64,000 nucleotides of DNA from an uncultured Muribaculaceae bacterium. Lineage in GTDB: Bacteria > Pseudomonadota > Alphaproteobacteria > Rs-D84. Shown here one piece after another: positions 51,170-51,706 of the stretch; position 1 is the stretch's first letter, and every line of letters starts with the position of its first letter. Under the pieces are notes generated by a model. The model was not told where the DNA came from. It did no database searches and saw only the letters and a list, made by a program, of their open reading frames with translations. A program made the translations under genes and the position numbers. The stretch lies in NCBI GenBank assembly GCA_964576135.1, contig CAZNTZ010000001.1:5792-69791 (forward strand), read 5' to 3'.

Positions 51170-51197
51170 AAAAAATCCGCAATCGCGGATTTTTTAT
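51170..51197 (+). terminator. rho-independent terminator
   Basis: aaaaATCCGCaatcGCGGATtttttatt. Confidence 0.7.
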
Positions 51198-51706
51198 TGA
51201 TATGGGCAAGTGTTAGTGGCTGTAAATTCCCCTGCGCTATCTTTGTAATTACCGCTTGGAACGTAACAATTTGACTGTGTCGTACCAACACCGGCCGCGA
51301 CTGTGCCATAAACCGCAGAACCATCCGTAGCAGTAAAACTTGCCTCGGCGGCACAACGTGTGCATGCATCAGAATTTGCATTTACCTGTGTTCCGTAATA
51401 TCCAGTACGGCAACGATATCCAACTATTATTGTTGGTAATGTACATGCTGTGCAATCAGAATTTGGTTCACCAACTTTGCCAACTTGTCTGGTGGATCCA
51501 GTATTAGACCATACGATATCATCACATTCAAGAAAGCATATTTCACCACAACAGTCACCACTGACGCCACAGCTCCATAAACATGTAGAAGTATTACAAT
51601 AAGGCGACTCGCCATCCTGACACATTCTTATCGCGAACGAATTATCTGTTATTAAAAATATGCCAATAAACATGGCATATATATAAAATAATTTTGGTAT
51701 TTTCAT
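51194..51706 (-). CDS. small secreted cysteine-rich protein, unknown function
   Basis: Signal peptide MKIPKLFYIYAMFIGIFLITDNSFA. About 20 Cys in 145 mature residues, including CCGEICFLEC, CTACTLP and CRTGYYG. Confidence 0.5.
   Translation of the reverse strand: MKIPKLFYIYAMFIGIFLITDNSFAIRMCQDGESPYCNTSTCLWSCGVSGDCCGEICFLECDDIVWSNTGSTRQVGKVGEPNSDCTACTLPTIIVGYRCRTGYYGTQVNANSDACTRCAAEASFTATDGSAVYGTVAAGVGTTQSNCYVPSGNYKDSAGEFTATNTCPYQ

Follow-up and report, generated by a model that had tools for sequence, protein, structure and literature searches.

The open reading frame (ORF) at positions 51194..51706 on the minus strand of the window (the whole stretch of 64,000 nucleotides analysed here) is a genuine protein-coding gene, and its 170-aa product (hereafter, the target) is a member of an uncharacterised protein family without a Pfam or NCBIfam model. 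The family is united by a conserved C-terminal cysteine-rich module and is represented by multiple paralogs scattered over the genomes that carry it. On balance, the evidence leans towards reading the target as a disulfide-stabilised, secreted binding module on a divergent Ephrin_rec_like/TNFR-type scaffold, with contact to a partner or host as its likely role.

The cysteine-rich gene and its product

The translated sequence of ORF 51194..51706 matched the one quoted in the earlier note. That note had named poor coding statistics and a lack of conservation in any relative as observations that would speak against the gene. In six-frame codon scoring, the frame of this ORF ranked best of the six, and its GC3 (0.275) was that of the long genes in the window (0.273). 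The per-codon score was lower than that of the long genes, which can be explained by the unusual composition of the protein, rich in Cys, Thr and Gly. The best-ranking frame, the matching GC3 and more than 100 homologs that keep the Cys/Gly/Tyr pattern support the ORF as protein-coding. Cys-richness alone is weak evidence for a gene, since spurious short ORFs in the window also reach 10–20% Cys. The parts of the gene and its flanking signals are as follows.

51936–52952: gap
51893–51919: gap terminator
51842..51870, minus strand: promoter-like site, TTGAAA, 17-nt spacer, TAAAAT (10/12 matches; consensus scan, pattern match only)
51712..51716, minus strand: Shine-Dalgarno-like AAGGA, 5 nt upstream of the ATG (the minus strand reads AAAAAGGACGTTA-ATG)
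51632..51706, minus strand: signal peptide, residues 1–25 (MKIPKLFYIYAMFIGIFLITDNSFA), from sequence features, with predicted type I cleavage after SFA
51518..51631, minus strand: lineage-variable 8-Cys N-terminal cluster, residues 26–63, C-x7-C-x4-C-x3-C-x5-CC-x3-C-x3-C
51455..51517, minus strand: linker, residues 64–84, holding VWSNTGSTRQVGK, by alignment the counterpart of the family motif W-x3-GTGYQ-x-R
51197..51454, minus strand: C-terminal cysteine-rich module, residues 85–170 (alignments, family HMM, AlphaFold pLDDT 81–96)
51194..51196, minus strand: stop codon TAA, inside the terminator stem
51167..51198, no strand assigned: bidirectional intrinsic-terminator-like hairpin AAAAAATCCGCGATTGCGGATTTTTT, a palindrome with flanking runs of A and T

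The gene stands alone, with gap on one side and, on the other, a small lipoprotein gene, which is followed by ftsH; tilS, miaA and priA are further neighbours. The earlier description of a gene isolated between two terminators and next to gap therefore holds, with the hairpin at 51167–51198 on one side and the gap terminator (51893–51919), followed by gap itself (51936–52952), on the other. The hairpin overlaps the stop codon, was called by the terminator scan on the minus strand and is common to the Cys-rich gene and its convergent neighbour, a small lipoprotein gene (50882–51151). The promoter-like site, which is sigma-70-like, lies just downstream of the gap terminator and ca. 136 nt upstream of the start codon. 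A search of Rfam gave no RNA element within the gene or its flanks, and there was no compositional anomaly at the gene that would point to a recent island in this AT-rich window (37.6% GC).

Two neighbouring ORFs were also inspected. The small lipoprotein gene (50882–51151, plus strand) encodes 89 aa rich in Lys, Ala and Glu with a lipobox LAAC, and its Pfam LPAM_1 score of 19 bits is just below the cutoff of 20. A 142-aa ORF on the opposite strand (51694–52122, plus strand), which shares sequence with the start of the Cys-rich gene as well as with the 3′ end of gap, is almost certainly spurious.

The N-terminus of the target reads as a Sec-type signal, with MKIPK, a hydrophobic core and a cleavage site between SFA and IRM, suggesting that the protein would be exported via Sec. 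By count from the sequence, all 15 cysteines (residues 29, 37, 42, 46, 52, 53, 57, 61, 85, 88, 99, 115, 118, 147 and 167) fall in the mature part. The earlier note was right in describing an unusually Cys-rich mature part of 145 residues, but its figure of about 20 cysteines was too high. Cys makes up 10.3% of the mature protein versus 1.2% of the products of 25 long genes in the window (binomial P = 4e-10), and the excess over the random-codon expectation was also clear (P = 6e-5). Because the number is odd, at least one cysteine must be unpaired, leaving room for redox, metal or intermolecular chemistry.

The cysteines are divided between two parts of the protein. The 8-Cys N-terminal cluster is poorly conserved in the family, with local similarity found only in the members P0024 and P0002; among those examined, the cluster of P0024 is the nearest to that of the target (AIPMCNDGDS versus AIRMCQDGES). 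Beyond this cluster, the target has seven cysteines, comprising C85, which is not conserved in the family, and the six conserved cysteines of the module (C88, C99, C115, C118, C147 and C167). Other conserved module positions are G102-Y103-Y104, Y148, G152, D156, G159 and Y169. CxxC occurs at residues 85–88 and 115–118, and only three residues follow the last Cys of the module, an arrangement common to nearly all members. With a net charge of −7 and a pI of 4.24, the mature protein is acidic (family module median pI 5.5), and it contains neither His nor a catalytic motif.

An uncharacterised family with a eukaryote-like module

Standard searches returned little for the target. Its full-length sequence matched no Pfam or NCBIfam family at E ≤ 10 and had no match in PHROGs or PADLOC, a word-indexed protein search that used just the target as query gave no match beyond the target, and the exact protein is known from one contig only. 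Nevertheless, an exhaustive phmmer search of 1.8 billion cluster representatives with the target alone identified 12 genuine homologs (E 1e-7 to 6e-4). All 12 alignments reach within a few residues of the C-terminus in both proteins. The 13th match, a 937-aa repeat protein (P0014), was rejected as a false positive; only its signal-peptide region was aligned. Profile searches led to 107 clusters of 75–181 aa, and the family comprises more than 100 homologs of 75–320 aa. The homolog search proposed in the earlier note thus yielded over 100 relatives, in contrast to the lack of any conservation that it had considered adverse to the gene. The membership of the target is not circular, since a family HMM built without it still gives it 56.8 bits (E 1.3e-19 for one sequence).

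Alignments define a shared C-terminal module of ca. 85 aa with six conserved Cys and conserved GYY, CY, G, D and G positions. The family pattern is C-x10-C-x2-GYYG...C-x2-C(P)...CY-P-G-Y-D-G-F...C-Y, which in target numbering corresponds to C88-x10-C99-x2-G-Y-Y-(G)-x10-C115-x2-C118-(P)-x28-C147-Y-x-P-x-G-x-Y-x-D-x2-G-x-F-x7-C167-x-Y. A second shared motif, W-x3-GTGYQ-x-R, lies upstream of the module, and the target version is VWSNTGSTRQVGK. Short members (ca. 90 aa) consist of the signal peptide and the module only, long members (ca. 146–181 aa), including the target, add a variable Cys-rich N-terminal part, and rare members carry a duplicated module, such as that at L081:932-1486 (tandem C-x2-GYY...CxxCP). 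A comparable N-terminal hydrophobic leader is found in most full-length homologs. The target shows the features of the family, i.e., the six-Cys module, a leader with the module at the extreme C-terminus, and a single gene without an operon partner.

Neither tblastn nor the family HMM detected a second family member within the window. Another small Cys-rich ORF (13476–14060, plus strand) encodes 194 aa with a signal-like leader, nine Cys and the motifs SCGAGYIL and CKKLWC; it had no Pfam or PADLOC match and only weak PHROG matches (E ≥ 0.04), and was not detectable as a family member with the family HMM (9.7 bits, E 0.03). Among the members, P0106 (172 aa, ENA) combines the usual C-terminal module with a differing N-terminal half, which begins with a lipoprotein-like leader (PF12702 in precomputed Pfam); this reflects either a swapped domain or a chimeric assembly.

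The earlier note had likened the protein to eukaryote-like disulfide-rich domains, and the C-terminal module bears this out, being related to Ephrin_rec_like, TNFR and furin-type repeats. Pfam scans of single members matched Ephrin_rec_like (PF07699) in seven of 106. Four of these (P0092, P0094, P0097 and P0111), which carry one extra repeat, passed the PF07699 gathering score of 23.1 bits with 31–42 bits. In the single-repeat members P0091, P0118 and P0122, the match runs from profile positions 8–14 through 48 and corresponds to the conserved core, from the Cys of C-x2-GYY over CxxCP to the equivalent of C147. The family consensus scored 21.5 bits (E 2e-4), just below the cutoff. The full-length target had no match to PF07699 at E ≤ 10, and its C-terminal part alone reached 8 bits (E 3.3). 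Compared with the PF07699 motif C-x2-G-x-Y...C-x2-C-P...G-[AST]-x3-4-C, the target reads C99-RT-GYY, C115-TR-C118 and G-TTQSN-C147, with Ala in place of Pro after CxxC and a 9-residue insertion. Given that four homologs pass the cutoff and the target itself does not, the target is a remote PF07699 relative by transitivity rather than a demonstrable member.

Weaker Pfam matches in other members were to VSP, Furin-like_2, TNFR_c6 and TNFR_ELAPOR1. Against the PDB, P0097 weakly matched the cysteine-rich domains of EphA2, EphA4, EphB2 and EphB6 (E 0.7–7), and sequence searches of the PDB with the target, a 13-sequence profile and a 106-sequence profile gave nothing significant. Matches to the NLRP1 LRR and R-spondin in the PDB (E ≥ 0.09) were rejected as compositional.

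Structure prediction from the single target sequence gave a pLDDT of 38.7. With the 106-sequence alignment, AlphaFold modelled the module as successive beta-hairpins with a pLDDT of 81–96, and the N-terminal cluster stayed below 50. Strands at 46–53 and 67–74 (mature numbering) were modelled with a pLDDT of ca. 62–69, the strand in the linker being paired with the one that precedes C99. A fold search with the modelled module returned only weak matches, almost all of them to TNFR or Eph cysteine-rich domains. Taken together, the module is a divergent relative of the ephrin-receptor-like, TNFR and furin disulfide-braced repeats; this relationship is solid for some members and borderline for the family consensus, whereas for the target it holds only by transitivity.

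These repeat types differ in what they share with the family. With PF07699, the common logic is C-x2-G-Y-Y...C-x2-C-P...G-[AT]-x-x-x-C in secreted or extracellular proteins. However, family members are tiny stand-alone modules (65–150 aa mature), whereas the known PF07699 examples are repeats in large multidomain eukaryotic proteins, and the family adds a conserved extreme C-terminal tail, CY-P-G-Y-D-G-F-C-Y. The PF07699 domain has been described as arising in ancient eukaryotes, and the bacterial cases of Eph- and ephrin-domains that have been found were treated as horizontal transfers (PMC6993872). With TNFR cysteine-rich domains (TNFR_c6; CD40, OX40 and HVEM), the family would have in common an elongated beta-hairpin architecture braced by disulfides, as predicted from the model, and five members match TNFR_c6 weakly in Pfam. 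Giardia VSPs (PF03302) and furin-like repeats (PF15913) also contain CxxC and GYY-type cysteine-rich repeats, and five members match each of these two models weakly, below the Pfam cutoffs (best E 4.8e-5 and 7e-3, respectively). Like the Giardia VSPs, the family comprises many paralogs in which variable regions are joined to a constant C-terminal part. Unlike them, its proteins are much smaller, without a membrane anchor or CRGKA tail and without evidence of switching.

Source organisms and genomic behaviour of the family

The few source-named members are ‘hypothetical protein’ entries in metagenome-assembled genomes (MAGs) labelled Alphaproteobacteria or Rickettsiales, and the family has so far been seen mainly in gut alphaproteobacterial MAGs. 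The protein encoded by gap in the window shares 77% identity with its counterpart from a ‘Rickettsiales’ MAG, and 72% and 70% with the proteins from two Candidatus Enterousia MAGs; the priA-miaA-gap synteny is conserved with Enterousia and related MAGs. These gap identities of 70–77% suggest Candidatus Enterousia (order Rs-D84) as the host lineage. Rs-D84, including Enterousia, are gut Alphaproteobacteria with genomes of < 1 Mbp, reported to be without respiration and most biosynthesis and predicted to be partner-dependent (PMC12306168). Rs-D84/Enterousia have been found in termites, whether or not these harbour gut flagellates (PMC11257099).

The contig of the member P0083 carries a ‘Muribaculaceae’ label. 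Given its synteny with the alphaproteobacterial locus of P0017 and its TolB and AsmA/TamB genes, this label is probably a binning error. Two contigs labelled Muribaculaceae, L002 (CAZUED010000007.1) with the alphaproteobacterial priA-miaA-gap synteny and L088 (JAMPEH010000002.1) with a TolB-fba-efp synteny shared with Enterousia-like loci, probably come from mislabelled bins.

At every locus examined (the window and five others), the family member is a single gene among housekeeping genes. The positions outside the window are as follows.

P0017 and P0083: between fba and efp
P0085: inside a ribosomal-protein/secY/rpoA cluster
P0034: in L087, between recO and rplI
P0045: after a methionyl-tRNA-synthetase-like gene

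None of the six loci contained a maturase, an immunity gene or a dedicated export transporter. The position of orthologs is conserved in close relatives (P0017 and P0083) and differs in distant ones. No family member lies beside gap in the syntenic loci of the relatives L001–L006, and the recO-rplI interval of the window is 42 bp without a member, whereas L087 carries P0034 at that place (window 34855–36126 versus L087:5021–7234). Gain and loss thus seem to affect family genes one at a time, in the intervals between conserved housekeeping genes.

Paralogs were evident from locus-tag prefixes, with four members under K2L25 and two each under IJX89 and K2I81. They can also be closely spaced, as three members occur within ca. 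10 kb in both L081 (932–1486, 6001–6480 and 7690–8337) and L088 (2634–3374, 8001–8483 and 10396–10965), in each case interleaved with tolB, fba, efp and ppa. A scan of viral contigs found no relatives of the family. Elsewhere in the window, a tyrosine recombinase (46382–47308, minus strand) has a Phage_integrase domain and a SAM-like N-terminal domain, and is probably XerC/D rather than a mobile-element integrase.

Proposed function and alternative explanations

The window encodes a candidate enzyme for the formation of disulfide bonds:

33990..34817, plus strand: DsbA-family thiol:disulfide oxidoreductase (Pfam DSBA, 70.7 bits)

This DsbA homolog has 275 aa with a thioredoxin fold and a long N-terminal extension, and is 62% identical to a DsbA-like gene (CPYC active-site motif) next to recO, near P0034 in L087. 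Its presence shows that the reduced genome of the window keeps a predicted disulfide-forming machinery. We infer that this homolog, although encoded by a gene unlinked to that of the target, is the likely oxidant of the exported Cys-rich protein. The anoxic gut habitat and the reported lack of respiratory chains in this lineage (PMC12306168) bear on the re-oxidation of DsbA and make disulfide formation less certain.

As judged from these features, the following sequence of events could be proposed. The Sec pathway would export the pre-protein, signal peptidase I would cleave after SFA, and the periplasmic DsbA homolog would then, most likely, oxidise the mature protein. The last ca. 85 residues would fold as an elongated stack of beta-hairpins, presumably with three disulfides among the six conserved cysteines, and the lineage-specific 8-Cys cluster would sit ahead of this module. 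Given the absence of catalytic motifs, the acidic composition and the absence of partner genes, the protein most likely acts by binding, as a stable ligand, adhesin or decoy that is either secreted or kept at the envelope. The C-terminal module, which many paralogs have in common, would be the constant scaffold, with the variable N-terminal part setting specificity. As for what would be bound, contact with the surface of a partner or host cell is the likeliest role, because the Rs-D84 lineage is predicted to be partner-dependent.

A bolder version of this proposal, which we regard as unlikely, is that Rs-D84/Enterousia maintain an expanded and diversifying set of miniature eukaryote-like (ephrin-receptor/TNFR-type) proteins as contact or mimicry ligands, on a scaffold perhaps captured from eukaryotes and evolving like a variant surface antigen. 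If so, a constant C-terminal scaffold would be combined with a variable N-terminal cluster, in genes coming and going between housekeeping genes.

Alternatively, the protein might be a structural part of the envelope, in association, for example, with the outer membrane or peptidoglycan, and lend stability to the cell surface without any foreign partner. The location of members among housekeeping genes, the position kept by close relatives (P0017 and P0083, between fba and efp) and the terminator that the target gene has in common with the convergent small lipoprotein gene are consistent with such a role. However, the location shifts in distant relatives, no member lies beside gap in the syntenic loci, and none is present between recO and rplI in the window. 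The variable N-terminal regions and the variable copy number also fit an interaction or antigen-like role better, and a purely structural function is therefore improbable.

A secreted antimicrobial directed against competing gut microbes, such as a bacteriocin or a defensin- or knottin-like toxin, is a considerably more doubtful explanation. In its favour, the target is short, predicted to be secreted and rich in Cys, its variable N-terminal cluster includes a CC pair, and the family has many diversifying paralogs, as do some toxin families. The mature target is nevertheless acidic (net charge −7, pI 4.24), in contrast to the positive charge expected of defensin-like cationic antimicrobial peptides, which speaks against the defensin- or toxin-like reading of the earlier note, and the median pI of the family module is 5.5. 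Its Sec signal takes the place of a double-glycine or RiPP leader, no immunity gene, bacteriocin-export ABC transporter or maturase was found at the six loci examined, and no knottin, defensin or bacteriocin family was among the matches listed by Pfam or NCBIfam.

The more specific resemblances raised earlier were not supported either. Knottins have six Cys in ca. 30 aa forming a I-IV, II-V, III-VI knot; the N-terminal cluster of the target has eight Cys and an AlphaFold pLDDT of < 50, and no knottin family was among its Pfam matches. Granulins have twelve Cys, including four CC pairs, at fixed intervals, as opposed to the one CC pair (residues 52–53) of the target, which has no Pfam match. 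Precursors of lasso peptides or sactipeptides are short leader-plus-core peptides encoded beside maturases (a lasso cyclase and peptidase, or a radical-SAM enzyme), a description at odds with a 170-aa protein that has a Sec-type signal and no maturase gene nearby, here or in five other loci. The only likeness of the target to knottins, granulins and RiPP precursors is the high local Cys density at residues 29–61.

Similarly improbable is a periplasmic metal-binding or redox-buffering protein, in which the cysteines would bind metal or cycle between thiol and disulfide. The odd number of cysteines (15), the CxxC at residues 85–88 and 115–118, and the anoxic habitat of a lineage reported to be without respiratory chains (PMC12306168) would suit such chemistry. 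Yet the Cys pattern, combined with Gly and aromatic residues in beta-hairpins, fits PF07699 and TNFR scaffolds rather than metallothionein- or ferredoxin-type sites. Moreover, the mature protein contains no His, C85 of the first CxxC is not conserved, and a DsbA homolog is present. Finally, a spurious ORF or a decaying pseudogene without function is extremely improbable, as the restriction of the exact protein to one contig and a per-codon score below that of the long genes in the window are outweighed by more than 100 homologs with conserved Cys/Gly/Tyr, mostly with N-terminal leaders, an intact frame, native GC3, and the presence of a Shine-Dalgarno site and terminators.

The favoured reading thus remains a secreted, disulfide-stabilised binding module, and the family has implications at several levels. 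Defining a family model would annotate more than 100 proteins that are now ‘hypothetical’ or unnamed. In this family, a repeat type otherwise found mostly in large extracellular proteins of eukaryotes takes the form of a bacterial, stand-alone module of 65 residues, which could serve as a minimal fold model and a test case for domain transfer between eukaryotes and bacteria. Rs-D84/Enterousia, an uncultured group with a predicted dependence on partner cells, occur widely in animal guts (PMC12306168). Several copies of the family are kept in their genomes of ca. 0.9 Mb, which makes these proteins a concrete candidate for the partner-contact interface.
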